From IMG/VR virus record IMGVR_UViG_2562617057_000010, positions 9,241 to 73,240 of that record: a stretch of DNA of 64,000 nucleotides; one strand, written 5' to 3'. Positions within the stretch are counted from its first letter, which is position 1; the number at the start of each line of letters is the position of its first letter. The notes beneath the pieces are model-generated. The model searched no databases, was not told the DNA's origin, and was given only the letters and a program-made list of their open reading frames with translations. The DNA is from a virus. Lineage: Duplodnaviria > Heunggongvirae > Uroviricota > Caudoviricetes. The translations under genes and the position numbers were made by a program. This document shows positions 10,741 to 64,000 of the stretch, one piece after another.

Positions 10741-10741
10741 T

Positions 10742-45082: not shown

Positions 45083-45728
45083 GTATGAAGGCCAGATTGT
45101 TGGCTATGGTTCAAAGGAGCTGCGCGTTGAAACCATATCCTGCTGGCTGGCCCGCACAATCATTCAGACAAAACATTACTCCCGCCGTTTTGTGAATAAC
45201 TCTTACCTTCACCTGGGAGTATTCAGCGGACGTGAGCTGGTTGGCGTTCTCCAGTGGGGATATGCCCTTAACCCCAACTCAGGTCGTCGTGTCGTGCTTG
45301 AAACGGATAACCGGGGTTATATGGAGCTGAACCGCATGTGGCTACACGACGACATGCCCCGCAACTCTGAATCACGGGCCATCAGTTATGCGCTGAAAAC
45401 CATCAGATTACTGTATCCATCAGTGGAATGGGTACAGTCCTTTGCAGACGAACGCTGCGGACGTGCTGGCGTTGTGTATCAGGCGTCAAATTTTGATTTT
45501 ATTGGCGGCCATGAAAGCACGTTCTACGAGCTGGATGGCGAGTGGTATCACGAGATAACGATGAACGCGATTAAGCGCGGTGGACAACGAGGCGTGTATT
45601 TACGGGCTAATAAAGAGCGTGCCGTGGTGCATAAATTTAATCAGTATCGCTACATCAGGTTCCTGAACAAGCGAGCAAAGAAGCGGCTAAATACTAAGCT
45701 ATTCAGGATTCAGCCATATCCGAAATGA
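45003..45728 (+). CDS. mom: Mom DNA modification protein (acetyltransferase-like)
   Basis: 241-aa ORF overlapping com, Mu Mom-like, last gene before the right end. Confidence 0.85.
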
Positions 45729-45846: not shown

Positions 45847-45860
45847 GCGCTTTACTTTCG

Positions 45861-46562: not shown

Positions 46563-46573
46563 ACGTCAGTCCG

Positions 46574-47623: not shown

Positions 47624-47671
47624 TGGTTTTTTCTCCGGTTGGTCCTTTTGTCTGTTTTTCTCAACGACCGC

Positions 47672-48784: not shown

Positions 48785-48941
48785 TTCATTACCGCTTTTT
48801 GATGTATCTGGCGGTATTATTGCGGCTGTTTTCGCGGGTTTCATTCGTTCTGAATCCGGGCTTTTCGTATATGATTTTATGTGCGAAAAATGCCAAAATT
48901 TAACGATATTTCAGAGTGTTATTGCTCTTTATGATGGGCGA

Positions 48942-50765
48942 ATGAAATATACCGAAGAAGTCAGGGACGCTGCCCGCGCCCTGTATCTGAAATTCAGTAC
49001 ACCAAAAGAGATAGCGGCCACGCTGGGGCTTCCTGTGCGTACCGTTTATAACTGGGCTGTCCGGGGGCAATGGAATGAAATGTTACCAGCCGAGTCGGTG
49101 GAAGTGGCTGTCGCTCGGCGAGTGGAACGACTGACCTGCAAGGATGGTAAAAGCGAGCTTGAGCTTGAAGAGCTGCGCTTCCTGATATCCCAGCACGTCA
49201 GGCTGATGGCGCAGAAGAACAAACATGCTGAACGGATGGAAGAGATCCGGGCGATGGTCAATACCGGCGTGGTGGTCAATGATGGCCGACAGGGTAGCAG
49301 TGAAGAAGGGAATGACGAAGGTGGTAAAAAAAGGAAGCGACTACGTAAAAATGATGTCGGCGGACTGACAAAAGAAATATTTGATGAAAAAGCGAATGGT
49401 CATCTGTTTGAATATCAGCAATATGTGCGTGAGCACGGCGACGAACTGTTCCGCTTCATTCTGAAAGGGCGACAGGAAGGATTTACCTACTATTTTGCAT
49501 GGGAAGGGTTTGAAAAGGCCGTTCTCACGGGCAAGAATCAGATATTCTTTTCCGCCAGTAAACCCCAGGCGGAAGTTTTCCGTTTCTATATTCTCAGTAT
49601 TGCGCAGCAATTCTTTGGTGTCGAGCTTAAAGGCAACCCGATTCGCCTCAGCAATGGTGCGATACTGCGTTTTCTGGCGACCAATCCCAATACGGCGCAG
49701 TCCTACAGTGGCGACCTGTACGGGGATGAGGTCTTCTGGATATCGAAATTTGCCCGCCTGCATGAAGTGGCGTCAGCGATGGCGACGCATGACGAATTCC
49801 GTATTACCTATTTTTCAACCCCCAGCACTAAAACGCACCAGGCTTACAGGCTGTGGACAGGGGATGAATGGAAGGGCGACGATCCGAAACGTAAGGCGGC
49901 GGAGTTCCCGACCAGCAAGGAATTGCGTAAAGGTGGACAGGTCTGCCCTGACGGGATCTGGCGCTATGTCATCACAATGGAGGATGCGTGCGCTAAGGGA
50001 CTCAGTGCCAGAGTTAACATTGAGAAGCTGCGTAACCGCTACAGCGCCACGGCGTTTGCCATGCTGTACATGTGTGAGTTCACTGACTCCCGCGACACAG
50101 TATTTAAATTCTCAGACCTTGAAAAATGTGAGGTTGAGTTCGGCATCTGGCAGGACTTCGACCCCTCCGCATTACGGCCTTTTGGTAATCGTGAGGTGTG
50201 GGGTGGTTTTGATCCGTCACGAACGGGTGATAACTCAACATTTGTTATTGTGGCCCCGCCTGTTGAGCCTAAAGAAAAATTTCGCGTGCTGGCTGTCTAC
50301 CAGTGGGTGGGGCTTAACTTCACCTGGCAGGTTAAGCAGATTGAAGAATTAATGAAACGCTACCGGTTTACGCATATCGGGGTGGATATCACGGGTATTG
50401 GCCGGGGTGTTTATGATCAACTGGTACGCTCCGCACCGCGTGAGGTGATGGGGATTAACTACAGTGTTGATAATAAAAATAAACTGGTGCTTAAGATGAT
50501 TGACCTCATTGAGCGGCGACGTATCCAGTGGGTGAAAGATGCGGTTGATGAGGTGACAAAAGAACGTGCCGATATCCCGCTGGCATTTATGGCCATCCGC
50601 CGTGTAATGACTGCCAGTCAGAACGCAATGACGTTCGCCGCCGAACGCAGCGAAACGACCGGTCACGCGGACGTATTTTTTGCCATATCGCACGCGGTCT
50701 GTAATGAACCGCTCGACTATGAATATGACCGCCCCTCGGTGTGGGCATTCGGGAAGGCTGCATGA
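48942..50765 (+). CDS. terminase ATPase (large) subunit, P2 gpP-like
   Basis: About 607 aa from ATG 48942 (track ORF 48747 has an N-terminal extension overlapping O); divergent from O as in P2. Confidence 0.8.
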   Translation: MKYTEEVRDAARALYLKFSTPKEIAATLGLPVRTVYNWAVRGQWNEMLPAESVEVAVARRVERLTCKDGKSELELEELRFLISQHVRLMAQKNKHAERMEEIRAMVNTGVVVNDGRQGSSEEGNDEGGKKRKRLRKNDVGGLTKEIFDEKANGHLFEYQQYVREHGDELFRFILKGRQEGFTYYFAWEGFEKAVLTGKNQIFFSASKPQAEVFRFYILSIAQQFFGVELKGNPIRLSNGAILRFLATNPNTAQSYSGDLYGDEVFWISKFARLHEVASAMATHDEFRITYFSTPSTKTHQAYRLWTGDEWKGDDPKRKAAEFPTSKELRKGGQVCPDGIWRYVITMEDACAKGLSARVNIEKLRNRYSATAFAMLYMCEFTDSRDTVFKFSDLEKCEVEFGIWQDFDPSALRPFGNREVWGGFDPSRTGDNSTFVIVAPPVEPKEKFRVLAVYQWVGLNFTWQVKQIEELMKRYRFTHIGVDITGIGRGVYDQLVRSAPREVMGINYSVDNKNKLVLKMIDLIERRRIQWVKDAVDEVTKERADIPLAFMAIRRVMTASQNAMTFAAERSETTGHADVFFAISHAVCNEPLDYEYDRPSVWAFGKAA

Positions 50766-51817
50766 GTAAACGTAAAAGCGCACGCCTGCGTAAACGGGCA
50801 CAGACAGAAAATTTTACTCCCGGACGCGGCAATATTATCACTTTTGGGGAGCCGGAACCGATACTGACTACCGGCACGGAATACATCAACGTCTGGTATA
50901 ACGGTAGCTACAACTACTGGACACTACCAATAGACAGACTTGCGCTCGCGCAGTTGCCGAACCTTAACGCCCAGCATGGCGGCGTACTGTATGCACGCAA
51001 AAATATGGTGTGTGCCAGCTACCAGGGGGGTGGACTGACGACCGATCAGATGGAAATGGCTGTCTTTGACTACCTGCTGTTTGGTGATGTGGCCATTCTG
51101 AAGGTCCGTAACGGGTGGGGACGGGTGGTGGCGCTGGCACCATTACCGTCTTTGTATCTGCGTCGCAGCAAGCAACTTGATTTTATCGTGTTACAGGAGG
51201 GCGAGCCGCTGGTCTATTCGCCGTCTGATGTTGTGTTTTTACGTATGCATGATCCGCGACAGCAGATTTATGGACTGCCTGATTATATCGGTGGTATTCA
51301 TTCAGCGTTACTGAACAGTGAGGCGACCATTTTCAGACGTCGCTACTATCACAACGGTGCGCATATGGGGTTCATCATGTACGCGTCCGACCCGAATATG
51401 TCTGTTGAGGCTGAAGAAGCTATACGTAAAAAAATAGAGAGCGGTAACGGGCTTGGGAATTTCCGTAACATGTTTATCAGTATCCCAAAAGGGCAACCGG
51501 ACGGGATTAAAATTATTCCGGTTGGGGATATTCAGCAAAAAGATGAGTTTTCAAATGTGAAGAATATCAGCGCTCAGGATGTTCTTACGGCGCACCGCTT
51601 TCCGGCTGGTCTTGCCGGTATTATCCCGCAAAATGCGAGCGGACTTGGCGATCCCGATAAGGCAAGGACAACCTATGGACGGGATGAAGTGACACCTGTC
51701 TGCCGTAAATTCATGCAGGCTGTGAACAGCGATCCCGAAATCCCCCCGTCGTTACACCTTAATTTTACGCTGGAAGATGTGGAAAATGTGGTGTCTGCGC
51801 TGGCTGATGAAAAATAA
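50762..51817 (+). CDS. portal protein, P2 gpQ-like
   Basis: 351 aa from ATG 50762 overlapping P stop (ATGA); follows terminase as in P2 P-Q. Confidence 0.8.
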   Translation: MSKRKSARLRKRAQTENFTPGRGNIITFGEPEPILTTGTEYINVWYNGSYNYWTLPIDRLALAQLPNLNAQHGGVLYARKNMVCASYQGGGLTTDQMEMAVFDYLLFGDVAILKVRNGWGRVVALAPLPSLYLRRSKQLDFIVLQEGEPLVYSPSDVVFLRMHDPRQQIYGLPDYIGGIHSALLNSEATIFRRRYYHNGAHMGFIMYASDPNMSVEAEEAIRKKIESGNGLGNFRNMFISIPKGQPDGIKIIPVGDIQQKDEFSNVKNISAQDVLTAHRFPAGLAGIIPQNASGLGDPDKARTTYGRDEVTPVCRKFMQAVNSDPEIPPSLHLNFTLEDVENVVSALADEK

Positions 51818-51867
51818 CCCGAAAAAGACTATATTACCCCTGCAACCGGTCAGATTGTGGGGGGGTT

Positions 51868-52143
51868 ATGGCGGGTGTGATGAAAATTGAATGTCCGGCG
51901 TGTCACTGCCGGGCGGCTATACGCAAAACTGCATGGCAGGATGACGCAAAAACGCTGGCGGTAGTTTATTGCACCTGCACTAATTCTGACTGTAATATGC
52001 GTTTTTCGCTCAATCTTTCCGATCTTCGCGTGATTTCACCCAGTGACCTGCAAACTGATGGTGTCGTTAAAGCATTGCTCCAGCGCCTTAAACCAGACGA
52101 AAGGCAAATGGCACTGGATATTCTGCTCAGTGATGGCGCGTAA
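51868..52143 (+). CDS. ogr: Ogr/Delta-type zinc-finger late transcription activator
   Basis: CPAC-x~20-CTCTNSDC cysteine pattern of Ogr/Delta family; 91-aa ORF. Confidence 0.6.
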   Translation: MAGVMKIECPACHCRAAIRKTAWQDDAKTLAVVYCTCTNSDCNMRFSLNLSDLRVISPSDLQTDGVVKALLQRLKPDERQMALDILLSDGA

Positions 52144-52198
52144 GTGCCATTCTGTGGGGCGGTGGATCTTCCGCTTCCTCGCCCTGACAGACTCACCG

Positions 52199-52447
52199 CT
52201 ATGCGGTTCGCCCGGCATTTCTGAAATCAATGTGCAATAGCTCCAGTGCGGCTTCTTTATCAGCACCCGTTAATTCGAGATAATCCCAGAGGCTGGCGCA
52301 TAAACCACAGTTTCGCGAAAATATTCCGTCTGGATTTGCTCCGTTTTTCAGCCACAAATCATAAGTAATATAAAATCCGTGAAGTTGTTGCCTGATATTT
52401 TCTTTGATTTCCTGTACTGGCACGGTGTCTGGTAATTGCTCTCTCAT
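52199..52447 (-). CDS. hypothetical protein (distal to replication gene)
   Basis: 82-aa ORF overlapping upstream gene by 4 nt. Confidence 0.4.
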   Translation of the reverse strand: MREQLPDTVPVQEIKENIRQQLHGFYITYDLWLKNGANPDGIFSRNCGLCASLWDYLELTGADKEAALELLHIDFRNAGRTA

Positions 52448-52875
52448 TGTGGATCTCTCCTGTGTTGTGCCGGTCTGGCGAATGAAGGGTGCTGCGATGA
52501 AAAGACCCTTCGCGCCAGTGCGGCCTTGCGATTGACGGCAGTCAGTGTTCTGGCCAGCGCGACATTGTGTTTGCGGGCCTGCTCTTCGTGGTACTTCTGC
52601 ATGATTTTTCCGGCCGGGGTGAGCGGCTCCGGTTCTTCCGGCGAACGGCGTGGGCGAACGGCAATGGTCCAGCTCTGATATTCACTGCCCGGTCGCCTGT
52701 TAAGTATGTCGGTGATGGTGGTTGTGGTGGTGCGATCGGGGCTGGCCACCGTGATTTCCAGTTCGTCCCCGGGCTGTGGTCTTGTGGCTACGCCTCTCAG
52801 TGTCATGGCTGGCGTGCGCTGGCGCATAACGGCGTCGAACTGCTGACGCTGCATGGTGCAGTGAAATCGCGTCAT
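52444..52875 (-). CDS. hypothetical protein
   Basis: 143-aa ORF overlapping the stop of the replication gene by 4 nt. Confidence 0.45.
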   Translation of the reverse strand: MTRFHCTMQRQQFDAVMRQRTPAMTLRGVATRPQPGDELEITVASPDRTTTTTITDILNRRPGSEYQSWTIAVRPRRSPEEPEPLTPAGKIMQKYHEEQARKHNVALARTLTAVNRKAALARRVFSSQHPSFARPAQHRRDPQ

Positions 52876-55391
52876 GATCTTACCTCCGCTGACGACTCCT
52901 GTGTGATGACGATACGGCGGGTTGTGGCGCTCCAGTACGCGATACGCCCGTCGCCCGGGCGAACGCGGGCACCGTTACTCACGGAAATAATGGCTGCGTC
53001 AGGCAGCTGCACACCCAGCGCGTCGAGTTCGCGGGTGATTTGTGCGATGGTCGTGGTGTCGACAGGCACGACAACCTCCACCCTGACAGGGGTGTCTGAT
53101 GCTGGTCTGGTGTTATTTTGTCCGGTATCCGTGGTGGGCGGCTGATTTTTAAGCTGTCTGATGAGCTGTTTCCGCTCGTGACGGGTTAACGTCTGCAACC
53201 AGTGCGCCAGGCCGCTTTCCGGAAGCGTCAGCCGCGACCCACGCTGCCTGTTTTCTGTGCCGGTTCCGGCTGTTTTTTCGTCACCGGGACAGTTATTGCC
53301 ACGAGTCCAAGGGGCGGCAGGGCCGCCCTGAAGGTCAAAACCATTTTCGCGGGCGCTGTCTTCCGCTTCCGGTTTACGTCTTACCAGCTTCCAGTTGTCC
53401 GGATGCGTGCACACACGGGAGGATTCCCCGATGAGTGGCGACCAGATCCCGTAAATCTGTACGCTCTGTTCGCCGTAATCGTTCAGCTCATCTGCGAGGT
53501 CGTAGGCGGTGCGAATCAGGTAGTCCTTACGTGGAACAAGTACGCCGCCCTGTTTCTCTATGTAGGTGGCAAAACACCCGGCATCAGCGGCAGCAAGAAC
53601 CGCATCCATTGCGTCATCCTTCAGCCGTTGCGGACCTTCTGGGTTGCGTGCCATCTGGCTGGCAAGGCGGCGCAGTTCACGCCATACCTGACGGGAGGGG
53701 ATGCCAAAGAACTGGAACTGGCGGACCCGGTGAAGGCGCGCCCAGCCGATGGCGCGTTCCACGCTTTCTGCCATCGTCTTTCCTGATTCGTCGTCGATGC
53801 GCGGTTTGCCTGTTTTCGGGTCAATGCCATCCACGGCGTGGCTGTCCAGGTTCTTTCCGATGTAGGTGGCGATATAGCTGGTCGGCGTACCTTTCGAACC
53901 GTCGACGTACTCCGCCTTAAAGCGCGGAGTTATGTCATCGCCCAGCTCGTGGCGGTCTTCACGAATGGCAATATCGCGGGCGATGGTCACGATGCTGTCG
54001 ATTTCTTCAGGATGTGCAAAGACCATCATATGCCAGTGCACCGTGCCGTCATGGTGAGGCTCCACCGTGCGGATGCCATACCAGCGCAGGCCCTTGCGGT
54101 CCAGTCTGTTACGAACGGCTTTAAAAAAAGTGTTAACCAGATAATCACTGGAATCGCGCATGGTAGCCCCGTTCCATTTGGGGTTCGGATGACCGTTCTC
54201 CGTTGTTGCGTGGTATTTTGACGGGCAGGTGACAGTCAGAAACACCGCTTTGTCGCCACGGGATTCGGCTATAAGTTCCGCCCCTTTCATGGTGGCCATC
54301 ATTTCTGCCTTACGGTGAACCGGGTTACTTACTCCCGCGTAATACACTGTCTCGAGATCAATCGTGAACCCGTCTTCATTTTCCAGCATGAAACTTTTCA
54401 GAAAATCGCGTGTTTTCTCGCGCTGTGCGCGAAACTCACTTAACGCGTCCTGGCTCAGATAGGGCGATGTTTTTCTGGAAACCAGACAGGCGGCGCGGAG
54501 TTGTTCTTCTCTCCACTCGCAACGTAAAAGCCACAGTTTGCGTTTCCACCAGTCCGCACAGGTCAGGCGAAGGATTGCGCTCGGCAGCAGTTCCGTGTCC
54601 GGTTCGTTCTTGCGGTCTTTGTCTGTTGTCAGCGCGTCATAATGTGGAGGCATGGCGTGCAGGTGTAGCGCCATGCGGGCCAGCATCTGATACGCCTTCA
54701 GTGCCACCTCCATGGTCAGCTCGCCATCTCTGGCACCGAAACCATCACAGAGTGTTTCAAAGGAGCTGCTGAACATTGCCGCCGTCATGGTGCCCAGCGT
54801 CTGTATCTGGTGCTTGTTAAGCTGCGGCAGGTACAGCAAATCGTCTAGGCGTTCGCGTCCGGCAAGGGCGCGATAACCCGGTGTCAGCCAGCGGCTGTCG
54901 GTGCGGTCCAGTCGTTCGAATATTTTGCGCAGGGTTCCGCGCGCGTAGCCCTCTGATGGTCGACTCTTTTTGCCTTTCTGGCGGTCAGATTCCTGCTTCT
55001 TACGTAAAAAAGAGAGGCGGCGGCTCAGAGGTTCACGCAGATAAACAGGTAGCGCCTTTAGTGTGACAAATGCACGGGCCACCGGGTCTTGTTCTGTTGC
55101 CTGGCGCTTGCTGATGATGCTTTGTGTTACCTTCTCGCGCCGTTCGTCCTCATCGAGGGCGACCATGAGTTTTTTACCCATGTCTGACTGCACAAAAAAG
55201 GCTTCTTCTTCCGCCTCCCTGACTTCCTGTGCTTTCAGATCTGCTTCCTGGTAGTAGCGTATGGCCTGTTGCAACGGGGTTTCAGGCGTAGGCTGATACT
55301 TCGCAAATGTGGCTGGGTCAATGGCCTGCCGTGGTTCGTTCCAGTCCCAGGTAAATTTACTCATGGTTGACACCCTGTCACGCGTTGCCAT
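52872..55391 (-). CDS. replication initiation endonuclease, P2 gpA-like
   Basis: 839 aa with HUH-type motif (TVHWHMMVF), at the end of the early operon. Confidence 0.85.
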   Translation of the reverse strand: MATRDRVSTMSKFTWDWNEPRQAIDPATFAKYQPTPETPLQQAIRYYQEADLKAQEVREAEEEAFFVQSDMGKKLMVALDEDERREKVTQSIISKRQATEQDPVARAFVTLKALPVYLREPLSRRLSFLRKKQESDRQKGKKSRPSEGYARGTLRKIFERLDRTDSRWLTPGYRALAGRERLDDLLYLPQLNKHQIQTLGTMTAAMFSSSFETLCDGFGARDGELTMEVALKAYQMLARMALHLHAMPPHYDALTTDKDRKNEPDTELLPSAILRLTCADWWKRKLWLLRCEWREEQLRAACLVSRKTSPYLSQDALSEFRAQREKTRDFLKSFMLENEDGFTIDLETVYYAGVSNPVHRKAEMMATMKGAELIAESRGDKAVFLTVTCPSKYHATTENGHPNPKWNGATMRDSSDYLVNTFFKAVRNRLDRKGLRWYGIRTVEPHHDGTVHWHMMVFAHPEEIDSIVTIARDIAIREDRHELGDDITPRFKAEYVDGSKGTPTSYIATYIGKNLDSHAVDGIDPKTGKPRIDDESGKTMAESVERAIGWARLHRVRQFQFFGIPSRQVWRELRRLASQMARNPEGPQRLKDDAMDAVLAAADAGCFATYIEKQGGVLVPRKDYLIRTAYDLADELNDYGEQSVQIYGIWSPLIGESSRVCTHPDNWKLVRRKPEAEDSARENGFDLQGGPAAPWTRGNNCPGDEKTAGTGTENRQRGSRLTLPESGLAHWLQTLTRHERKQLIRQLKNQPPTTDTGQNNTRPASDTPVRVEVVVPVDTTTIAQITRELDALGVQLPDAAIISVSNGARVRPGDGRIAYWSATTRRIVITQESSAEVRS

Positions 55392-55750
55392 TCCTGCGAG
55401 AAGAGGGCAGAAAGACGGTTAAACTCAGTGGTGTATTCACTCAGCGAGGCACACCCGCCAGCGGTGCGATGCGCCAGCATTGCTGCAAACACGGAGGCAG
55501 GGGAGTTGTAATACGCCAGCAGGGAGTCGCCGTGTGGTGTCAGGGTGTACAGGGCCAGACCGTGTGGTGTGAAGTCCACGCGGTAACAGTCGTCCACGAT
55601 GAAATAAAGGGGGCCTGCGTTCTCTGGTTTTGTGGTGCGAGCCTGGCTGGCGCGGGCACGGAGATAGAAATCAAACATTGCCTGAAGTTTTGGAGCCAGA
55701 CGGGTGTCCTGTGTGCGCACCCATTTTACGAAGTCATGACGGTCAATCAT
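55361..55750 (-). CDS. hypothetical early protein
   Basis: 129-aa ORF overlapping A start. Confidence 0.45.
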   Translation of the reverse strand: MIDRHDFVKWVRTQDTRLAPKLQAMFDFYLRARASQARTTKPENAGPLYFIVDDCYRVDFTPHGLALYTLTPHGDSLLAYYNSPASVFAAMLAHRTAGGCASLSEYTTEFNRLSALFSQEWQRVTGCQP

Positions 55751-55822
55751 GCTGCACCTCGCTTTGTTAAAGATGTGCGAAGGCCTCCCGCCGCAAGGTG
55801 CAGGAAAGGCCCGGAACAGGAA

Positions 55823-56053
55823 TTAATGGAGTTTGTTTTGCTGCTGGATGAGCTGTTGAAGCTCGTGCAGATCATCCGCCAGATAGCTGAATACAGCGGC
55901 GCAGTAGCTGTCTGACAGCGCGTGGCTGCGTTCATGCAGCATATTGATGTGCATGATTTGCGCGACGCGTGATGCGCGGAAAAGTCTGCGGTTGATTTCA
56001 GTCTGGATGTGACGACGCGCAGCGTATGCGCGCTGTTGTTTGCGGTTTGCCAT
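55823..56053 (-). CDS. hypothetical early protein
   Basis: 76-aa ORF. Confidence 0.4.
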   Translation of the reverse strand: MANRKQQRAYAARRHIQTEINRRLFRASRVAQIMHINMLHERSHALSDSYCAAVFSYLADDLHELQQLIQQQNKLH

Positions 56054-56373
56054 GATGTGGCCTCTATGTGTGTAAGTTTTGAAAACTCACCATCCAGAGG
56101 TCTCAAACTCGGGGTGGCGAGACGTACAGGGTTGAGACTACCGGCAAACATAGAACCCGGCCCGACCGAAGTCGGCCCCGTACGCCCCACCATAATTCGT
56201 GTGCGAAAAAGATGTGGCGATACAGTACGCACAAAAAAACCGCTGGCGCGGTTGTGCGCTATGTTTGTCAGCGGGGTCTCAATCCCGGCACCCGTTTTAT
56301 GAGGTGCAGCGGAAATGTAACCTGACTGATTGCGACATGGCAAGCGGTTTTTTTGTGTGTGCATGATGATCAC

Positions 56374-56928
56374 TCAGTTCGGCAGCAGTTCGTACAACAG
56401 GGCGTCGGCGGCGGTCCGGCGGTTGTAGAGGTGAAACGCCGTATCATCGCTGATGTGCATTTGCATCGTGATGTTGATGTGTTTCGCGATTATGCAGAAC
56501 GTCATGTTGCGTCTGTCGCGTAGCTCCGTAACCAGCTCAGCCAGACGATCGCTGTATCTGGTGCAATGGTGGCTCTCGCCGCATTTCTTAAGGCTGTAAC
56601 CCCGTTTATGCAGTGTGTACCTCACGGTGCACTCGCTGCATCCCGCCTTCCGGGCCAGTTCCCGTGCGGTTTTTGCGTGACGGTTTTTGATGAGAAAGGC
56701 GATGGCTTCTGCACTCAGCGGTGCTTTTTTCTTGCGACCAATCAACCCGCGATTACGTAAAAAAAGAATCCGGTGCATCACTGCGCTGCGGGTTCGCTGA
56801 AGTCGTTCAGCCATTTGCCATGTGCTGTGATCCTGATAAAGCGAGATAAGCAGTTCGTCTTCCTGTTGTGTCCATGCACTGACGTGCTTCGGTGCTTTAC
56901 CTGGTCCCCCCATTGGTTTCAGAAACAT
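56374..56928 (-). CDS. hypothetical DNA-binding protein
   Basis: 184-aa ORF with several basic HTH-like segments. Confidence 0.45.
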   Translation of the reverse strand: MFLKPMGGPGKAPKHVSAWTQQEDELLISLYQDHSTWQMAERLQRTRSAVMHRILFLRNRGLIGRKKKAPLSAEAIAFLIKNRHAKTARELARKAGCSECTVRYTLHKRGYSLKKCGESHHCTRYSDRLAELVTELRDRRNMTFCIIAKHINITMQMHISDDTAFHLYNRRTAADALLYELLPN

Positions 56929-57230
56929 GATTTGGCCTCCTTACGGCTTTCTGGTGTGGAGATGATCAGATTCAGTTTCAGGGCGGTGGCGTGTTCCTCT
57001 TTTGCCCCCGGCGAGTCCTCCCAGCCATCCAGCAGGTAAATCACATCGGCACAGTGCAGCATGGCGCTCCCGATAAGCATGTAGTCCCTGTATCTCAGCC
57101 CGTCAGGGAGTGTTGCGGGGTTGAGTACGGTATGGCCCTGCATCCTCAGGCGGGTCGCTGTCATGGTGAAGGCGGTGCGGTTGAAATCAGGCTTTCCCGT
57201 CATGGGGCCGGCGATATAGATAACGGTCAT
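56919..57230 (-). CDS. small conserved phage protein (DUF4406-like candidate)
   Basis: 103 aa (MTVIYIAGPMTG...), overlaps dam stop. Confidence 0.4.
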   Translation of the reverse strand: MTVIYIAGPMTGKPDFNRTAFTMTATRLRMQGHTVLNPATLPDGLRYRDYMLIGSAMLHCADVIYLLDGWEDSPGAKEEHATALKLNLIISTPESRKEAKSCF

Positions 57231-58189
57231 TGCATGATCTCCGTGGTGGGGTGTGGAGCGTGAAGGGGAGACGGCCAGCCCACATTGACGTCCCGGAGCT
57301 GGCTTTTATGGGCTGGCGGATAAACACCAATTACCTCTTTTGCCTGCTGGCGTGCGCTGCTGCTGGCAGCAACAGAGCGGCGAACGCTCAGGGTGTGCAG
57401 CTCAAACGAGGAATAGATTTGCCGGGTTTCGGTGGTGTCACTGTTGGAGACCACCGGGCGGATACCGTAACGCTGCCAGGCGTTCATCATGAGCGCCGCA
57501 AGGTCACGGTGGTCTTTACGGGTGAATGCCCGGCCGTTGTAGTGAGTGAATGCCTCTTTACCGTCCGGCGGCAGGTAGGGCGGATCGCAGTAAATGGCGA
57601 TACCGCCGTGCACTGAAGAAAAACGGCGGATCTCAGCCGGCATTGTGAAGGCTGTACGGAAATCCGCGTGAATAAAGCGGGTTCGTGTCTCGCGGGCTTT
57701 ATCAGCAAACAGGCGCATTTCCTGATCGGGGAAATAAGGTGTGCGGTGTTTGCCGAATGGCACATTGAATTCGCCTTTTTGGTTGGTGCGGTGCAGGCCG
57801 TTAAAGCAATAGCGGTTCAGGTACAGAAACAGCGCTGCCCATTCCAGGGATTCGCCGCGTAATCTGTCGGTGGCCAGCGCGATGGTGTTAAATGCCCCGC
57901 GATGGCGTTTGTAGGCTTCCGGTGTGCCACCATCCTTAAAGAGTGACCATGCACGATCCATTAATTCCATGGTGTTGGTCGTCAGTTGCTGGTAGAAATT
58001 AATCAGCGCGGGGTTGCTGTCACACAATACGTAATGGTCGTAATCCGTATTCATGAAGACAGAGCCACCGCCCACGAAGGGTTCGATCAGGCAGGCGGCT
58101 TTGGGTAAATATTCGCGCAGCTGCGGCATGATACTGAATTTGCCGCCCGCCCATTTGAGCGGTGAGCGCTGGTTCAGAATACCTTTCAT
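57227..58189 (-). CDS. dam: DNA adenine methyltransferase (Dam family, orphan)
   Basis: LKWAGGK and FVGGGS SAM-binding motifs plus DPPY catalytic motif; no adjacent restriction enzyme gene. Confidence 0.85.
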   Translation of the reverse strand: MKGILNQRSPLKWAGGKFSIMPQLREYLPKAACLIEPFVGGGSVFMNTDYDHYVLCDSNPALINFYQQLTTNTMELMDRAWSLFKDGGTPEAYKRHRGAFNTIALATDRLRGESLEWAALFLYLNRYCFNGLHRTNQKGEFNVPFGKHRTPYFPDQEMRLFADKARETRTRFIHADFRTAFTMPAEIRRFSSVHGGIAIYCDPPYLPPDGKEAFTHYNGRAFTRKDHRDLAALMMNAWQRYGIRPVVSNSDTTETRQIYSSFELHTLSVRRSVAASSSARQQAKEVIGVYPPAHKSQLRDVNVGWPSPLHAPHPTTEIMQ

Positions 58190-58425
58190 GCGTCACTCTC
58201 CGGTTTTTTCCCGCGTGTGAATGGGGTGGGTTCGAGCGTGATTTCGCGCCGGATATTGCGCACGCGTAACTGCGAGCCGTCGTTCAGGCAGATCACGCGT
58301 TCATCATCCGGGCCGGTGATGTTGTCCAGCAGCGAACGGTCAGGGTTGATGTGGCGTTCCCTGATGCGGTAATGGTCGCCGGTGACAGTGCTCTCGCACA
58401 GAATGCAGATAATGGCGGGTTTCAT
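58186..58425 (-). CDS. hypothetical protein
   Basis: 79-aa ORF with 4-nt overlaps. Confidence 0.4.
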   Translation of the reverse strand: MKPAIICILCESTVTGDHYRIRERHINPDRSLLDNITGPDDERVICLNDGSQLRVRNIRREITLEPTPFTRGKKPESDA

Positions 58426-58952
58426 GCGTCAGCCCTCCACTGCGACAACATCACGATGTGGGTGAAGGTGTACCGCCAGTAGGTTTCGTTTTTGGGGTTT
58501 TCTATGTGGCAGGTGTCCCGCATGAATGCAAAGAGTTCGTCGCGGGGATGGTTTTCAGGGTTAAAGCCGTCCCTGACGGCCACTTCATCGGTTATCTGGC
58601 GGCCCTGTATTACACCGATATCGGCAATGAAGGCCACGGCGAACGGCACGGTTTCGCCGTTCTTGTTTTCTGTGACCAGATGAATGTTGTCATACTGCCG
58701 GTAGGGCTGTCTTTTCAGGAGTCCGGCAAAGTCTGATGCGCGGGTAAATGTGGTTCCCTCTTCAAAAACCAGGGTACCGCCGGCGCTGTAATCGGGAAGA
58801 ACGATGTTGCGGGTCAGGGTGTCTTCATGAAAATATTCTGCTGACTCCTGGCCCGCCTGGTAGCAATCAAACCCCGTCGGGCGAAGGGATGTGGTCTTGC
58901 GTCCGTTGCGGAATGCGTCAATAAAGCAGGGCTTAAATTTCATCTGTAACAT
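58422..58952 (-). CDS. ASCH-domain-like protein (candidate)
   Basis: 176 aa; N-terminal FRNGRKTTSLR resembles the ASCH GxKxxExR motif. Confidence 0.4.
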   Translation of the reverse strand: MLQMKFKPCFIDAFRNGRKTTSLRPTGFDCYQAGQESAEYFHEDTLTRNIVLPDYSAGGTLVFEEGTTFTRASDFAGLLKRQPYRQYDNIHLVTENKNGETVPFAVAFIADIGVIQGRQITDEVAVRDGFNPENHPRDELFAFMRDTCHIENPKNETYWRYTFTHIVMLSQWRADA

Positions 58953-59193
58953 CGTCTTATCCTCTTCACGTATTCGTTATGGTTAAGCAGTACCCATGTC
59001 CGGCTTTCGTCCAGACTTAACAGCCGGTAACGGTACATGACGTTGATGACGCGGGCGGGCGGTACCCGCTCCAGCCGTCGCACGTGTGACCGGCCCCCTT
59101 CAGCAGGCGACGGTATGCCGCCCTTGCTGCCCGCTCCGGCTTTCCCCCCTGGCTTCATCCGGTTTTTGCGGTGTCGCGCAGGGATAATCAGCT

Positions 59194-59616
59194 TCATTTG
59201 TCGGGGGTTATTTCCAGGTTTCTGGTCTTTACCCAGCGGTCTTCCTCGAAGGGGGAATCGAAACGGACGAAAACCCGGTCAATGGCGGGGCTACTGGTGC
59301 GGGTGTCAACGATCGTTCCGCGTTGCTGCGGACTGTTTTTCAGACATACGCGGGTCCCTTTGATGAATGTGGTGTGGCAGGTGTGTTCAGCACTTTCCTT
59401 TGCCGGGTCAGCTGCTGTCTGAAGGGTGGCAAGCTGATTTCTCAGACAGGTGTTTTCCTGTACCACCTGTTCAATTGCGTCTGCGGCGATAAGGTGAGGC
59501 TCCACTGACAGCACCATCATCGGGTTGTCAGTGTCAGCCATCATTGCGGCGTAGTTGCGTAAAAACATTGCGCCCGCAAGGGCTTTATCTTTGAGGGTGA
59601 GTGTCGGATTAATCAT
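59194..59616 (-). CDS. hypothetical early protein
   Basis: 140-aa ORF. Confidence 0.45.
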   Translation of the reverse strand: MINPTLTLKDKALAGAMFLRNYAAMMADTDNPMMVLSVEPHLIAADAIEQVVQENTCLRNQLATLQTAADPAKESAEHTCHTTFIKGTRVCLKNSPQQRGTIVDTRTSSPAIDRVFVRFDSPFEEDRWVKTRNLEITPDK

Positions 59617-59683
59617 TTTTATTTCCCTTATTCAGATTGTGCGAATCCCGCCGCGTGAGCGGTGTATTAACGAAACCGGTTAA

Positions 59684-59899
59684 TTAACTAAAGAGGCGGC
59701 GTGCTTTACGCTCTACGTCTTCTTTGTGCTGAATGAATGCGTTGTATGCATCCCGTTTTTTTTTCTGGCGACGTCTGTCGCGTATTTCCCGCCATGTATC
59801 AATAAGTGTCAGTATGCAGATGGCAAAAAACATTGCGGCTGCAATCAGTGTGATAACAAATAACGACTCCGGTACACTGAATGAATAACTGAAATTCAT
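59684..59899 (-). CDS. small membrane protein
   Basis: 71 aa, one TM helix (LFVITLIAAAMFFAICILTLI) then highly basic tail. Confidence 0.4.
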   Translation of the reverse strand: MNFSYSFSVPESLFVITLIAAAMFFAICILTLIDTWREIRDRRRQKKKRDAYNAFIQHKEDVERKARRLFS

Positions 59900-59904
59900 C
59901 GTGA

Positions 59905-60147
59905 TTACTCCGTAATTATTGCGGGTTCGGGAACCATGCCATCCGTTAATTGTTTCGCCATCCGGTTAAGTTCTTTAAGGTCCTCGCTGGCTCCCGTATC
60001 TTTTGAACAAAACAGGGTGTTGCGGACGCTGAATATTCCGCACTTCATTACTTCGAAGTGTGTTTTTCTGGCGCGGGGATTAATTTCGTTATCGAAGTAA
60101 TATCCCTGCAGAAATTCGTTTACCTGTTCTGCTGTGTGTTTTCTCAT
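59905..60147 (-). CDS. hypothetical early protein
   Basis: 80-aa ORF. Confidence 0.4.
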   Translation of the reverse strand: MRKHTAEQVNEFLQGYYFDNEINPRARKTHFEVMKCGIFSVRNTLFCSKDTGASEDLKELNRMAKQLTDGMVPEPAIITE

Positions 60148-60188
60148 AACGGAGTCCTCGTTAAAAATAACCGGTGATAAACCCGCTG

Positions 60189-60539
60189 TTATAACTCAGC
60201 CTGTTTAATAAAATTTTCTCCGTAAAGAAGGCGATCAACTGTGCGTAGCGCTTCGTACAACGTGAAATCCTGCCCGAACTGATTGTCGCCGCAGCTCAGA
60301 GCAAAAATGCGGTTTCCGGTAAACGGATTGCGCGGGTATTTGTGGACCACTATTCCAGCTTTCTCAATCATCCAGGTATGCTCGCCGATTTGTTTTACTG
60401 CGTGGCCATCCGGTGTTGCGTGTGTCTCGCTCAGGCTGTAGCGGATGTTGCTGCGTGATGCGCTGGTAGCGAAACGGTTGGCATAGCGTTCTGCGCCGTT
60501 GCGGAAGCGCTGCTGTGAAGAATTGAGTTGTTGTTTCAT
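60189..60539 (-). CDS. hypothetical early protein
   Basis: 116-aa ORF. Confidence 0.45.
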   Translation of the reverse strand: MKQQLNSSQQRFRNGAERYANRFATSASRSNIRYSLSETHATPDGHAVKQIGEHTWMIEKAGIVVHKYPRNPFTGNRIFALSCGDNQFGQDFTLYEALRTVDRLLYGENFIKQAEL

Positions 60540-60567
60540 ATTTCTACTGGTCCTTGTGTGACGGTAG

Positions 60568-60762
60568 TTACAGTGACTCGTTTATTGCCAGCTTAAAAAT
60601 CATTTCAGCCAGAACTTCGCTAATTACATTGACGTCCTGATTGGTCAGTGCCATTTTCCAGGCATGGCTTGCCCGTGTAGGAGCCAGCCGGCCTGATTGT
60701 TGTTGCATGATGATGATGCGTAAATTGCTGTATAAGTCTTTTGTTTGAGTGAAGCCAGTCAT
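60568..60762 (-). CDS. hypothetical early protein
   Basis: 64-aa ORF. Confidence 0.35.
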   Translation of the reverse strand: MTGFTQTKDLYSNLRIIIMQQQSGRLAPTRASHAWKMALTNQDVNVISEVLAEMIFKLAINESL

Positions 60763-61059
60763 ATCAACACCTTCAAATCTTGATGTTTTTAATGAAACCT
60801 TTGGGTTTTAATTAATGTGTTCATTTTTAATATCATGTTAAAAATATAACTGGTGATAAATTTAATGGTTGTAGTAACCAAACTATACCTAAACAGATGA
60901 TCGCAATCCCCCTGTTATGCCTGCAAGCAGGTTTTTTGGGTTGAACATGATTAAGCCCTGTTAAAAGTTATAATAATCAGCGATGCCAGCATGGCTAGAA
61001 CAGGTATAATCATGTATTTGATTGAAATATATATTAGTGTTTTGCTCATGGCTGCAAGT

Positions 61060-61263
61060 TCAGCTATTCGCAATGGCATCTTTCAGCATGGCTACGAGAT
61101 TTACCTCAATAGCGTCTTTAGCTTTTTCTTTTGGACGGATAATAATCCGTCCATCGCGAACCATTCCCCTACATGTGCCGATTGGTGTACCTGTCATTTC
61201 CGCGTATTTCTCCAAGCGGACGTAGGCTGTAGGTATGTTAATGTTGATAGTTATGTTACTCAT
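61060..61263 (-). CDS. Cox-like HTH regulator/excisionase (candidate)
   Basis: 67 aa with HTH-like YAEMTGTPIGTCRGMVRDGRI, early position divergent from repressor. Confidence 0.45.
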   Translation of the reverse strand: MSNITININIPTAYVRLEKYAEMTGTPIGTCRGMVRDGRIIIRPKEKAKDAIEVNLVAMLKDAIANS

Positions 61264-61466
61264 TCTTTTTCTTCTCCCTCCTGAGTGATGATCTCAAGTC
61301 CGCGCATGAAAATGACGTGGGCCATATTGCAGTCAGTGCGAAGCTCTTTCTTTGCCAGGTCCTCTACAGTCTTACGAACTTCTGGTGTCAGACGCAGGGC
61401 GATCGGCCTGCCTTTGAAGGCACCTTTAGGCAATCGTGACTTATGAGCGTGTTGTTCTTGATTCAT
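61260..61466 (-). CDS. ribbon-helix-helix-type small regulator (candidate)
   Basis: 68 aa, first gene divergent from repressor. Confidence 0.4.
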   Translation of the reverse strand: MNQEQHAHKSRLPKGAFKGRPIALRLTPEVRKTVEDLAKKELRTDCNMAHVIFMRGLEIITQEGEEKE

Positions 61467-61509
61467 AGTGATATATTGTGATCCTCTATCAGTTCGTTAA
61501 TGACATTGT

Positions 61510-61527
61510 GGTACGTTTTTGCGTACC
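61510..61527. promoter_or_regulatory. operator-type palindrome in the lysis/lysogeny switch region
   Basis: GGTACG-TTTTTG-CGTACC perfect inverted repeat between divergent regulator genes. Confidence 0.4.
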
Positions 61528-61542
61528 TGTCAAGGTGATTTA

Positions 61543-61921
61543 TATGCATTTAAGTATAGGTGAACGCCTTAGAGAGGAACGTCTCCGCTTAGAATTAAGC
61601 CAAGCTGCTCTTGGTGAGATCGGCGGGGTTAGAAAGCAAGCGCAGCTCCTCTATGAAAAAGGTGAGCGCAATCCAGATACTGCTTACCTTTCTGCGATAT
61701 CAAAGTTCGGGGTGGATATTCAATATGTTGTGGTTGGTGAGCGCTCTGTGTCGGCATTGAGTAATGATGAAAGTGAGCTTTTGTCGCTTTATCGTTCTGC
61801 TCCATTGGCCGTTAAAGCGGCAGCATTGGCAGCTCTTACAGCCGGTAGTTCTGCTTCTGTTTCTGTCAATGTATCAGGCAACAGTAACCGTGTAGCGGGC
61901 GGGGATTATCACGAAAAGTAA
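61543..61921 (+). CDS. C-type immunity repressor (XRE-family HTH)
   Basis: Start at MHLSIGERLREERLRLELSQAALGE (track ORF starts 61478); divergent from early operon, same strand as integrase. Confidence 0.65.
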
Positions 61922-61942
61922 GCTGCGAGAGGAAGGCGGGGT

Positions 61943-62617
61943 ATGGATTTAAACTCAAACGGGGATAAGAATAAAATTGCAGGACGTGATTATAAAGAAA
62001 ATAACGTCCAGATTGAGAGTTTGGATAGTAGCCAGACAATCAATATCAATGTTCCAGCTAAGGCTGGCGAAGAGCGCCCGTTAGTAAAGTCCCAACGTAT
62101 CAGCATTCGAAAACTTGTAAATGCTGTAGCTGAGTCTGAAAACACAGAAACAGTGCCAGTTTGGGTAAAGTTGCACGCTGAACTTGGCGTGAACGGTGTG
62201 AGTGAGATATCAGGTAGTCAGTACAAGGTTGCGTTAAAATTCCTCAACGATTTACTGGCAGAAAGTAAGGAGAAGAAAACAAAAAAAGTTCTTGTCGCTA
62301 AGATCTTGAATAAAACAGAGGCGCAGGATTTGCGCCATAAACTGAATGAACATTGTAGTATTTATTACAAAAACACACGGCTGGATGAATTAAGCCACAA
62401 TCAACTCGTTGAAATTTATGAGTGGATAGAAAAAACAGCTCCCATTGTTTCACCTGAATGTAAAGAGGATATGTCTGTTTCCTTTAATGACAACATCAGA
62501 ACTAGTAATTCTGTTAATAGAACACCATTTATTAAATTGCTGACAACGCATTATTTAGTGTTCATTATCGTATTTGTTGTTGGTTTTGTTGTGGGCGAAA
62601 TCGTTTCAAAAATATGA
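61943..62617 (+). CDS. membrane-anchored hypothetical protein (cargo between repressor and integrase)
   Basis: 224 aa, Lys/Glu-rich, C-terminal TM helix (LVFIIVFVVGFVVGEIV); locally AT-rich DNA. Confidence 0.5.
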   Translation: MDLNSNGDKNKIAGRDYKENNVQIESLDSSQTININVPAKAGEERPLVKSQRISIRKLVNAVAESENTETVPVWVKLHAELGVNGVSEISGSQYKVALKFLNDLLAESKEKKTKKVLVAKILNKTEAQDLRHKLNEHCSIYYKNTRLDELSHNQLVEIYEWIEKTAPIVSPECKEDMSVSFNDNIRTSNSVNRTPFIKLLTTHYLVFIIVFVVGFVVGEIVSKI

Positions 62618-62629
62618 AGTGAGATAGCT

Positions 62630-62964
62630 ATGGGAAATCACAATGAAATTTTGAAAATAGTGCATTGCCAAAAATGTGATTGTTATATACCTAGTACAGA
62701 TACTAATTGCCCTATCTGTGGTTCGAAGTTTGTTTTACTGGTTTTAAAAAAACAGATAAGGACAGGCTAAAAAATTCTGCAATTTCTGCCGGTATGATAG
62801 TTCGCAATGATGTGACTGCAAATCTTCATATTCTTTGCTGTGGCCGCAATGCGGGTCCGAAAAAAATGGAAATAGCAGCATTAAAAGGAACTATGATATT
62901 AACTGAAAGTGAGTTTCTGGATTTTTTAAATTTAGGCGTAATCCCTGACAAATATTGTTCATGA
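62630..62964 (+). pseudogene. zinc-ribbon + BRCT-domain protein gene interrupted by a 1-nt frameshift
   Basis: Frame A 62630-62770 encodes CxxC...CPICG zinc ribbon; frame B 62707-62964 encodes BRCT-like FTGFKKTDKDRLKNSAISAGMIV...ESEFLDFL; restoring one T in the run at 62733-62736 joins them as GSKFVFTGF. Confidence 0.5.
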
Positions 62965-62974
62965 GGGTTGTGAC

Positions 62975-64000
62975 ATGACAGTTCGGCGACTCGCATCAGG
63001 AAAGTGGCTTTGTGAATGTTATCCATATGGGGCAAGCGGAAGGCGTATTCGTAGACAGTTTGCTACAAAAGGTGAGGCGCTTTCTCATGAGCGCCGATTG
63101 ATGGTGCATGCCGATGTTTCAGTGGTTAATAGTTCAAAACGATTGTCTGAGCTTGTTGATATTTGGTACGAGATGCACGGTAAAACATTGACTACGGGTG
63201 AAGAACGGCAGGCTAAGTTGAAGGCTGTTTGCGAAAGGATGGGAGATCCGCTCGTTTCAGAATTTGACCGCAATATGTTTGCTGTTTACCGGAAGCGTCG
63301 GTTATCAGGTGAATGGAGTGCTAATAAGAAAAAGCCAACTAAGGAAGCTACCGTAAATCGTGAGCAGTCATATTTGCACGCTGTTTTTTCTGAGTTAAAG
63401 CGTCTTGGCGCGTGGGCTGGTGAAAATCCTTTAGAAGGTGTGCGCCATTTTAAAGTTAGTGAAAGCGAACTCTCATTTCTGTATGAAGATGAGATTGAGA
63501 GGCTTCTTTCGGTTTGCGATGAATCAGGCAACGCCGATCTTGGTTCTGTTGTTCGTGTATGTCTGGCGACTGGGGCCAGATGGAGTGAGGCTGAAAAATT
63601 AACACAGTCTCAGGTTTTACCGGGACGGATCACATTTACGAATACCAAGAGCAAGAAAAACAGAACCGTCCCGATTTCGGATAACATCCAGAAGCTGTTA
63701 CCCAAACGTCGAGGCCGTCTCTTTTCAAATTGCTATGAAGCTTTTACTTGGGCGCTAAAGAAAGCAAAAATTGAGTTGCCGGAAGGTCAGCGAACTCACG
63801 TTCTCAGGCATACCTTTGCAAGCCACTTTATGATGAATGGGGGGAATATCTTGGTGCTACAGCAGATACTAGGTCATAGTACGATTCTTATGACGATGCG
63901 ATATGCACACTTTGCCCCAGACCACCTTGAGGCTGCGGTAACGCTCAATCCATTAGATCGTATTTACACCAAAAATAGTGGCGATAAAAACGCACTATAG
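62975..64000 (+). CDS. int: tyrosine integrase (P2-type)
   Basis: 341 aa, C-terminal catalytic region HVLRHTFASHFMMNGGNILVLQQILGHSTILMTMRYAHF; stop codon at 63998-64000. Confidence 0.85.
   Translation: MTVRRLASGKWLCECYPYGASGRRIRRQFATKGEALSHERRLMVHADVSVVNSSKRLSELVDIWYEMHGKTLTTGEERQAKLKAVCERMGDPLVSEFDRNMFAVYRKRRLSGEWSANKKKPTKEATVNREQSYLHAVFSELKRLGAWAGENPLEGVRHFKVSESELSFLYEDEIERLLSVCDESGNADLGSVVRVCLATGARWSEAEKLTQSQVLPGRITFTNTKSKKNRTVPISDNIQKLLPKRRGRLFSNCYEAFTWALKKAKIELPEGQRTHVLRHTFASHFMMNGGNILVLQQILGHSTILMTMRYAHFAPDHLEAAVTLNPLDRIYTKNSGDKNAL

Follow-up and report, generated by a model that had tools for sequence, protein, structure and literature searches.

A putative immunity module of a repressor and a tail-anchored membrane partner, next to an exchangeable cargo slot, in a P2-like prophage

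The window analysed here was a stretch of 64,000 nt from a Caudoviricetes virus record (IMG/VR IMGVR_UViG_2562617057_000010, positions 9,241 to 73,240), and its end is the immunity and integration region of a P2-type prophage. We studied the interval between the repressor and integrase genes of this region, where an earlier note had placed an island of cargo DNA with two genes. The reading that we consider moderately probable has two parts: a conserved immunity module formed by the repressor and a 224-aa membrane partner and, on the integrase side, an exchangeable slot that holds a frame-broken remnant. On the sequence comparisons given below, the 224-aa gene is best regarded as a lineage-conserved member of the immunity module and not as cargo, because it is kept after the repressor, travels without the integrase context and has a terminal motif that co-varies with that of the repressor. 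The module has the following parts.

61544-61921 (+), immunity repressor, 125 aa, with an XRE/P22-C2-type helix-turn-helix (HTH), a helical 'APLAVKAAALAALTAG' segment and a G/S/N-rich C-terminal tail
61865-61915 (+), repressor C-terminal tail motif VNVSGNSNRVAGGDYHE, which stops one residue short of the stop codon
61943-62617 (+), 224-aa tail-anchored partner, made of an N-terminal motif, one helical Flk_N domain and a C-terminal transmembrane (TM) anchor
61949-61999 (+), partner N-terminal motif LNSNGDKNKIAGRDYKE, at residues 3-19, which corresponds to the tail motif of the repressor
62075-62443 (+), Flk_N domain, residues 45-167, a five-helix bundle in the AlphaFold2 (AF2) model with a predicted local distance difference test score (pLDDT) of ~96
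62525-62611 (+), C-terminal TM anchor, residues 195-223 (AF2 helices 195-202 and 204-223), with a single residue after it

A motif of about 17 residues, hNhSGxxNRVAGRD[YF]xE (type 1), was common to the C-terminal tail of the repressor, which ends ...VNVSGNSNRVAGGDYHEK*, and the N-terminus of the partner, which starts MDLNSNGDKNKIAGRDYKEN. Searching all six frames of the 64-kb window with the pattern N[RK][IVA]AG[RGN]D[FY].E gave exactly two matches, at these two termini, and no match was obtained in 200 shuffled controls. When 596 Gb of genomes were searched with the motif pattern, 64 matches were found and 24 of these stretches encode a relative of the partner; as far as such sequence searches reach, the motif appears almost confined to the repressor-partner gene pair. 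The variants of the type-1 motif co-varied by locus, with an identity of 10.0 of 17 residues within loci versus 9.5 between loci (permutation p=0.003). In both proteins the motif blocks ranked among the best-conserved segments, and the tail block of the repressor was conserved like its HTH (mean pairwise identity 0.72 vs 0.73). In 24 distant members of the partner family, the motif was near-invariant at G7, N10, A13, R15, D16 and E19. A direct repeat in the DNA or gene conversion was also considered as the source of the two copies and was rejected, since third-codon positions at identical residues were not conserved (~45% agreement) and the two copies were identical at 25-33 of 51 nucleotides. 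The motif is under selection at the protein level.

The motif was enriched in G (x2.1-2.3), N (x1.8-3.3), Q and V and depleted in K (x0.3-0.6), P (x0.1-0.3) and L (x0.1-0.2), and its type-1 form was also rich in the charged residues R, D and E. A second subtype, F.G.VGQvA.GD[IV], was likewise common to the tail of the repressor and the N-terminus of its partner, in phages KS5 and vB_SR4 of Burkholderia, in BcepMu-like phage phiE255, in a Ralstonia phage and in three further loci. In each locus the tail and the N-terminus carried common, locus-specific variants, for example QNFEGASIGQQVTGDV and QKFDGEIGQVAGGDV in KS5, QVFHGKVGQSIAGNV and QVFREDVGQAVAGDL in locus L123 and IVHGDVGQSISGD and KVYGNVGQMIGRD in locus L122 (tail and N-terminus, respectively).

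The HTH of the repressor matched PF01381 HTH_3 (E=3e-5), its PHROG matches were transcriptional regulators and repressors, and its best sequence match in the PDB was P22 C2. The repressor had been called P2-like in the earlier note; its likeness to P2 C proved weak and lay within the HTH (30% identity across 46 aa), and the HTH resembles that of P22 C2. The P2-like character of the integrase stood (36% identity to P2 Int, E=3e-76).

The prediction of a 224-aa protein anchored in the membrane at its C-terminus was borne out. The ORF is real, with a full-length match to phrog_5825 (E=1.9e-69) and homologues spanning 98% to 23% identity, and a hydrophobic C-terminal segment was present in most members of the family. 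Structure prediction, which had been proposed as a check on this protein, resolved the Flk_N bundle and the TM anchor and gave no confident structure for the N-terminus, which includes the motif (residues 1-44, pLDDT ~52 in the AF2 monomer). Judging from the position of the tail anchor, the body of the partner and its motif probably face the cytoplasm. Pfam PF27202 (Flk_N) was present in the precomputed annotation of the family and of the identical gene in relatives. Residues 38-160 matched the NCBIfam Flk model NF007987 (E=6.1e-12) with 45.5 bits, far below the curated cut-off of 353 bits, and in BLASTP the partner was 21% identical to the first of the two tandem modules of E. coli Flk (E=1e-8). 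We therefore speak, on sequence grounds, of a Flk_N-domain protein and not of Flk. Weak matches were also found to phrog_245 (E=1.3e-4) and phrog_2127 (E=2.6e-3), which cover the Ant C-terminal region, to PHROG 6521 ('moron, membrane protein') and, in a structure search of BFVD, to an ORF6C domain. The structure searches on the partner returned no informative match and no solved homologue of the Flk_N domain, and PADLOC gave no match for the protein. In an exhaustive HMMER scan of 1.8 billion representatives, the partner family comprised 48 clusters only, most of them 190-216 aa long with the same three-part architecture and a near-invariant N-terminal G..NRvAGRD[FY].E.

The partner gene lay directly 3' of this repressor type in more than 100 loci of P2-like and BcepMu-like prophages from Enterobacterales, Pseudomonas, Burkholderia and Ralstonia. 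Motif-linked pairing was seen in 29 fetched loci from at least 12 genera (Escherichia, Salmonella, Enterobacter, Kosakonia, Serratia, Pectobacterium, Yersinia, Hafnia, Mixta, Erwinia, Pseudomonas and others), with partner identity down to 23%, and in 78 of the 80 IMG/VR viral contigs examined. Relatives of the partner in IMG/VR numbered 171, typically ~2 kb from the end of ~35-kb contigs. In every fetched Enterobacterales locus the partner followed right after the repressor, between the Arc/Cox genes and int, and the module was also present in BcepMu-like transposable prophages with no integrase nearby. Tail-less homologues of the repressor, in Mana, PM105 and Dobby, had no such partner gene downstream. 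In L031:3588-4354 (Pectobacterium colocasium) and in L032:3326-4432 (a metagenome-assembled genome (MAG) of Pinirhizobacter), the partner had a zinc ribbon and coiled coil where the others have the Flk_N domain. Since both loci retain the repressor tail, the N-terminal motif of the partner and its C-terminal TM segments in spite of the different body, the motif and the membrane anchor are the constant features.

Some loci showed variations on this arrangement. Two successive motif-bearing genes followed one tailed repressor in L027:3475-4594 and in L119:2223-3496 (Ralstonia phage YO107_2), the latter with C-terminal hydrophobic segments in both products, and one repressor may thus have more than one partner. 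Burkholderia and BcepMu-like partners carried an extra segment of ~50 aa with cysteines after the TM helix (e.g. CEYGGNRYSLG...), namely L114:2510-3256 (KS5 gp12), L116:2223-3002 (phiE255 gp47) and L120:2308-3030 (vB_SR4). This segment is presumably periplasmic, and a cysteine-containing segment past the TM helix fits a sensor reading of the partner. The vB_SR4 partner is annotated 'alpha/beta hydrolase', which looks wrong; the sole annotation of KS5 gp12 and phiE255 gp47 is 'membrane protein'. Among isolate-phage records, only that of Escherichia phage 520873 (Xuanwuvirus; L008:4001-5027) had a homologue of the window's 224-aa gene. There the match falls into three pieces, nothing is annotated in the region and the integrase is divided between two coding sequences; this record probably describes a decayed prophage.

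Repressor and partner genes were co-directional, spaced by 0-60 nt or overlapping, and no terminator was found between them. The distance from repressor stop to partner start was stereotyped, being TAA + 9 nt + ATG in many loci, and in phiE255 and L122 the stop and start codons overlapped, which suggests translational coupling. In the window the two ORFs share a reading frame, and a fusion of repressor and partner by stop-codon read-through was rejected: in many loci they are out of frame, and the E. coli group (L058, L062 and similar IMG/VR contigs) has three consecutive in-frame stops between them.

The second part of the interval lies between the partner gene and int. The earlier note had counted about 1 kb of extra, locally AT-rich DNA between repressor and integrase, and both statements held. 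The gap from the repressor stop (61921) to the integrase start (62975) was 1,053 nt, compared with 115 nt between C and int in P2, and the GC content was 0.32-0.35 at 62300-62900, ~0.45 in the flanks and 0.53-0.60 deeper in the prophage. On the plus strand the order was HTH repressor, 224-aa ORF, two small overlapping ORFs and tyrosine integrase. The integrase-side features were as follows.

62618-62974 (+), variable cargo slot, 357 nt between the partner gene and int, which here holds a chimeric remnant
62630-62770 (+), 46-aa zinc-ribbon ORF: the start codon and CxxC...CxxC part of a 234-aa gene of the ZnR-2TM-WYL-like type, followed by out-of-frame sequence
62707-62964 (+), 85-aa BRCT ORF that starts at TTG: the 3' remainder of a 175-aa gene of the WYL-like + BRCT type
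62722-62725 (+), out-of-frame recombination or deletion junction of the two cargo fragments, located by three-way DNA alignment

Among syntenic relatives, the distance from partner end to int ranged from 18 to 1,115 nt and the slot was AT-rich (GC 0.31-0.42). Its genes were mutually unrelated and included WYL-BRCT (in two arrangements), ZnR-2TM-WYL, a PDC-S48-like BRCT gene, Abi_alpha/PDC-S47, DUF2511, lipoproteins, TM proteins and small acidic proteins. The slot is able to hold abortive-infection genes, as L024:4547-5383 (a Symbiopectobacterium MAG) carries there a gene that matches Abi_alpha and PADLOC PDC-S47 (E=8e-47 and 3e-56). These 357 nt beside int form a genuine slot for exchangeable cargo, a kind of site already known. 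The integrase-proximal cargo island of the earlier note was thus upheld for 62618-62974 and failed for 61943-62617, where the partner gene is conserved with the repressor. The same division appeared when the interval was compared across relatives, a check that the note had proposed: the slot varied in length and content, and the 224-aa gene was kept in the 29 loci and the 78 of 80 contigs.

The small gene that had been described as a single zinc-ribbon/BRCT gene resolved into two overlapping ORFs in different frames, which are fragments of two genes joined at 62722-62725. The first ~105 nt of the slot derive from the 5' end of the 234-aa gene, with 86% identity to the ZnR-TM-WYL gene as found in L003-6, and its last ~246 nt derive from the 3' end of the 175-aa gene, where identity to the WYL-BRCT gene in L002 and L035 is 91%; BLAST segments ended at slot positions 105-107. 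Both parental genes were recovered. Logan contig L002 has, at the same position, the intact 175-aa gene P0029, composed of a beta-domain and a BRCT domain, and the Salmonella prophages L003-L006 have the 234-aa gene, with a CxxC...CxxC N-terminus, two TM segments and a WYL-like C-terminus. In the AF2 model of P0029, residues 4-52 form a five-stranded beta-domain and residues 97-166 a BRCT domain, with a disordered linker between them, and Foldseek matched the model to BRCT domains of the RFC1 and LigA type and to PafBC, a WYL protein. The N-terminal WYL-like beta-domain is present in P0029-P0032 and absent from the ORF of the window.

For the 46-aa ORF only weak zinc-ribbon Pfam matches were obtained. 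The 85-aa ORF contained a complete BRCT domain (PF00533, 23.3 bits; cut-off 21.3), matched phrog_2561 at profile positions 92-167 of 167 (E=3.8e-26) and was ~90% identical to P0029 over the BRCT domain; an identical ORF is labelled 'BRCT domain-containing protein' in RefSeq. The 357-nt slot was 100% identical in E. coli FDAARGOS_943 (L001) and in IMG/VR contigs L033 and L034, which indicates a single recent junction event that has spread clonally. PADLOC found no recognisable defence system in the slot occupant of the window, and a conceptual fusion gave only a BRCT-level match to PDC-S48 (E=2.4e-6). The occupant is probably a non-functional remnant that yields at most a 46-aa zinc-ribbon peptide and/or a lone BRCT domain.

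A programmed -1 frameshift that would give a ZnR-BRCT protein was considered as well. At 62728-62752 a hydrophobic strand is read in either frame across the junction, as KFVLLVLKK or as EVCFTGFKK, and an A7 tract comes after it (62746-62752). Such a frameshift is mechanistically possible and unlikely as an evolved feature, since the A7 tract is ancestral to the BRCT gene, with the native BRCT beta1 strand upstream of it, and the junction is single and recent. Nothing that would indicate an evolved frameshift signal was found at the tract.

In the reading that we prefer, the XRE-type repressor and the tail-anchored inner-membrane partner would be coupled through their common motif, most likely by direct motif-to-motif pairing of the repressor tail and the partner N-terminus, and the membrane partner would set the amount of repressor that is free for DNA binding. 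The partner would then act as a conditional, membrane-located anti-repressor or sequestering factor that ties the lysogeny switch to a membrane signal. We infer the physical interaction of the two proteins, its direction and its effect from their sequences. Any anti-repressor activity would have to be conditional, because partner and repressor are co-expressed.

Several points weigh against this proposal. An anti-repressor that is constitutively co-expressed with its own repressor is a paradox unless the partner is conditional. A third party that reads both termini would give the same pattern, kinship of the loci may account for part of the within-locus similarity of the motifs, the homology to Flk may instead indicate a flagellar function and the structure searches on the partner were uninformative. 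Furthermore, Pseudomonas phage Komp_PAO1_1 (L113:1881-3026) has a type-2 tailed repressor (SFHGPVGQAAQGDIKN) with no adjacent partner, and the gene after this repressor encodes a motif-free product with a signal peptide or lipoprotein character. It was the sole exception seen to the association of tail and partner.

A specific version of the coupling, which we regard as unlikely, is that the two proteins form an amyloid-like (prion-like) pair by analogy with NWD2/HET-S and E. coli Bab/Agp. The membrane-borne motif, clustered by a signal, would template the repressor tail into a cross-beta form and so irreversibly inactivate or aggregate the repressor. The geometry of the motif is that of the known pairs, with one copy at the C-terminus of the upstream product and one at the N-terminus of the downstream product. 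Its length (~17-25 aa), the absence of confident structure for it in the AF2 monomer, its occurrence on differing bodies (Flk_N or zinc ribbon) and the second motif-bearing membrane gene of some loci all agree with such a pair, as does the bias towards G, N, Q and V and away from K, P and L, which is also reported for BASS motifs. However, the pair contains no NLR/STAND sensor and no Bell/HeLo-type effector, charged residues (R, D, E) abound in the type-1 motif, the composition argument draws on one conserved motif family, and simple beta-strand pairing accounts for the data equally well.

The 224-aa protein could also be an effector encoded in the immunity operon and restrained or localised by the repressor tail, which seems to us rather improbable. 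It might be a Flk-like modulator of flagellar type III export, acting in lysogenic conversion or in the exclusion of flagellotropic phages, or else an abortive-infection protein, a toxin or a holin-like membrane protein. The Flk_N homology with a tail-anchored topology like that of Flk, the weak match to the moron membrane protein PHROG 6521 and the co-directional position after the repressor, with probable expression in lysogens, are in line with such a role; Flk holds the type III secretion system of the flagellum (fT3SS) in its early-secretion mode and may contact FlhA-C (PMC13344023). Yet the match reaches 45 bits against a cut-off of 353 and covers one module instead of two, and members of the family are also found in phages of Burkholderia and Ralstonia and with bodies other than Flk_N. 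There was no PADLOC match, and the effector role leaves the co-variation of the motif with the repressor tail unexplained.

We judged it improbable that both termini are recognised by one third factor (for instance a host protease or adaptor that targets a common degron, a chaperone or another host protein), for which the partner would compete with the repressor or with it meet the same fate. The motifs are terminal and strongly conserved and lack a confident predicted structure, the repressor tail of Komp_PAO1_1 shows that a tail can matter alone, and a conserved host target would agree with conservation that extends from Enterobacterales to Burkholderia. Against this, locus-specific co-variation of the copies would not be expected if a conserved host factor read both, and the motif is nearly confined to the gene pair (64 matches in 596 Gb, 24 with a partner relative).

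That both genes are exchangeable host-interaction or exclusion cargo, as first supposed from the AT-rich DNA and the absence of both genes from P2 (which we confirmed), is very improbable even with a variable slot next to int that holds defence genes in relatives and a hotspot between int and primase in the literature, since the 224-aa gene accompanies this repressor type (29 loci; 78/80 contigs), is linked to it by the motif and also occurs without the integrase context, and the second 'gene' is a broken chimera.

The genes that flank the interval complete the P2-type immunity and integration region.

61060-61466 (-), divergent early gene block (Arc-like and Cox-like)
61260-61466 (-), Arc-like early gene, divergent from the repressor (phrog_3431, E=1.4e-24)
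61060-61263 (-), Cox-like early gene, divergent from the repressor (phrog_575, E=1.3e-25)
62975-64000 (+), P2-type tyrosine integrase (PF24624 and PF00589), which continues past the window end

The integrase is 351 aa long in an identical E. coli prophage. A search for near-identical phage genomes with the interval 61943-62964 found none. In the early region of close relatives there was a ParE-like toxin gene (L001:3541-3798; L003:470-724). A complete Mu-like prophage is nested in the P2-like prophage at ~9500-45850 of the window, from its repressor (9761-10381) and transposase (10673-12847) through Mom (45003-45728), and is ~95-98% identical to Mu, D108 and SfMu across the tail, G and mom region. 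It is flanked by a head-tail adaptor gene (8914-9459) and the gene for the terminase small subunit (45861-46562). As this insertion splits the P2-like host prophage in two, the latter is probably defective. No site with the LexA-box consensus CTGT-N8-ACAG was found in the P2-like part of the window (45860-64000), and the sole match of the window, at 37852, lies within the Mu-like element.

No description of the repressor-partner module was found in the searchable literature, which is incomplete, and the module and its terminal motif are apparently undescribed. The phages that carry this repressor, P2-like and BcepMu-like, are without a LexA-like cleavage domain, and if the proposed coupling is true, a motif-coupled membrane partner would offer a concrete way for a signal at the membrane or envelope to reach the lysis-lysogeny switch. 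If the pair were amyloid-like, the lysogeny switch would be an amyloid-controlled, self-propagating decision, and amyloid signalling would reach beyond NLR/cell-death pairs into the transcriptional control of temperate phages from several Proteobacterial orders. The module is common, with 171 relatives in IMG/VR and occurrences in the isolated phages KS5 and phiE255. It also provides the first context of the Flk_N domain outside flagellar biology and could inform on the working of Flk itself. For annotation practice, the gene adjacent to the repressor should not count as cargo, and what RefSeq names 'BRCT domain-containing protein' is here a gene fragment.

Several known systems resemble parts of this region. 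The 357-nt slot resembles the defence and moron hotspots of P2-like phages in its AT-rich DNA and in the unrelated genes, Abi_alpha/PDC-S47 among them, that occupy it in relatives. In a 2026 NAR survey, 8% of P2 defence systems lay between integrase and primase (PMC13586616), and the main described P2 hotspots are GpA-GpQ and the site downstream of GpL (Rousset 2022, PMC9122126; PMC13586616). The slot of the window sits elsewhere and its occupant is a decayed chimera. Its 85-aa ORF matches the BRCT part of the phrog_2561 proteins, which are annotated 'DNA ligase' and consist of WYL-like and BRCT domains (~167-186 aa), but it lacks the WYL-like beta-domain and is preceded instead by an out-of-frame zinc-ribbon fragment of another gene.

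Flk (RflH, 'Fluke') of Salmonella and E. coli has in common with the partner the Flk_N module PF27202 and a cytoplasm-facing body on a C-terminal TM anchor. Inhibition of the specificity switch in flagellar type III secretion (T3S) is known for Salmonella Flk only (PMC13344023). The two proteins differ in that Flk is ~330 aa long with two tandem modules, at ~27-150 and ~160-290 before the TM anchor in E. coli K-12 flk (L007:3951-4946), whereas the phage partner has 224 aa and one module, 21% identity and 45 bits against the 353-bit cut-off. Moreover, flk is at a chromosomal pdxB-flk locus and its product has no N-terminal NRVAGRDY motif, whereas the partner gene is in a prophage, paired with a repressor.

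The amyloid pairs, i.e. fungal NWD2/HET-S and bacterial BASS including E. coli Bab/Agp (BASS11), likewise consist of adjacent genes with a short motif at a C- and an N-terminus, and Bab/Agp shares the prophage location. In composition the motif fits theirs, with an excess of G, N, Q and V and little K, P or L; motifs of this class are about 20-25 aa long and beta-prone, and the core here has about 17 aa, with many R, D and E residues in type 1. In contrast to these, the upstream product here is a DNA-binding repressor and the downstream product a tail-anchored membrane protein; HTH_3, Flk_N and TM segments were found, with no NLR/STAND, TPR or PIN sensor and no Bell/HeLo effector. The repressor-partner pair lies outside the BASS and HET-s families as defined.

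Repressor-antirepressor pairs of phages include P22 C2/Ant, 186 CI/Tum, CTX RstR/RstC and VP882 cI/Qtip. As in these, a phage protein is proposed to control the availability of the repressor, but the partner is encoded in the operon of the repressor itself and not under LexA or other separate control, is anchored in the membrane and has a terminal motif in common with its target. With regard to an SOS-controlled antirepressor of the 186 Tum type, the P2-like part had no LexA box and the matches to Ant-C PHROGs were weak only. Parallels are also offered by the immunity operon cI-rexA-rexB of lambda and by membrane-tethered regulators such as RseA/sigma-E. The partner is a single-pass tail-anchored protein with no relation to these in sequence or fold, and the likeness consists in a co-directional membrane protein gene directly after the repressor and in the proposed holding of a cytoplasmic regulator at the membrane.

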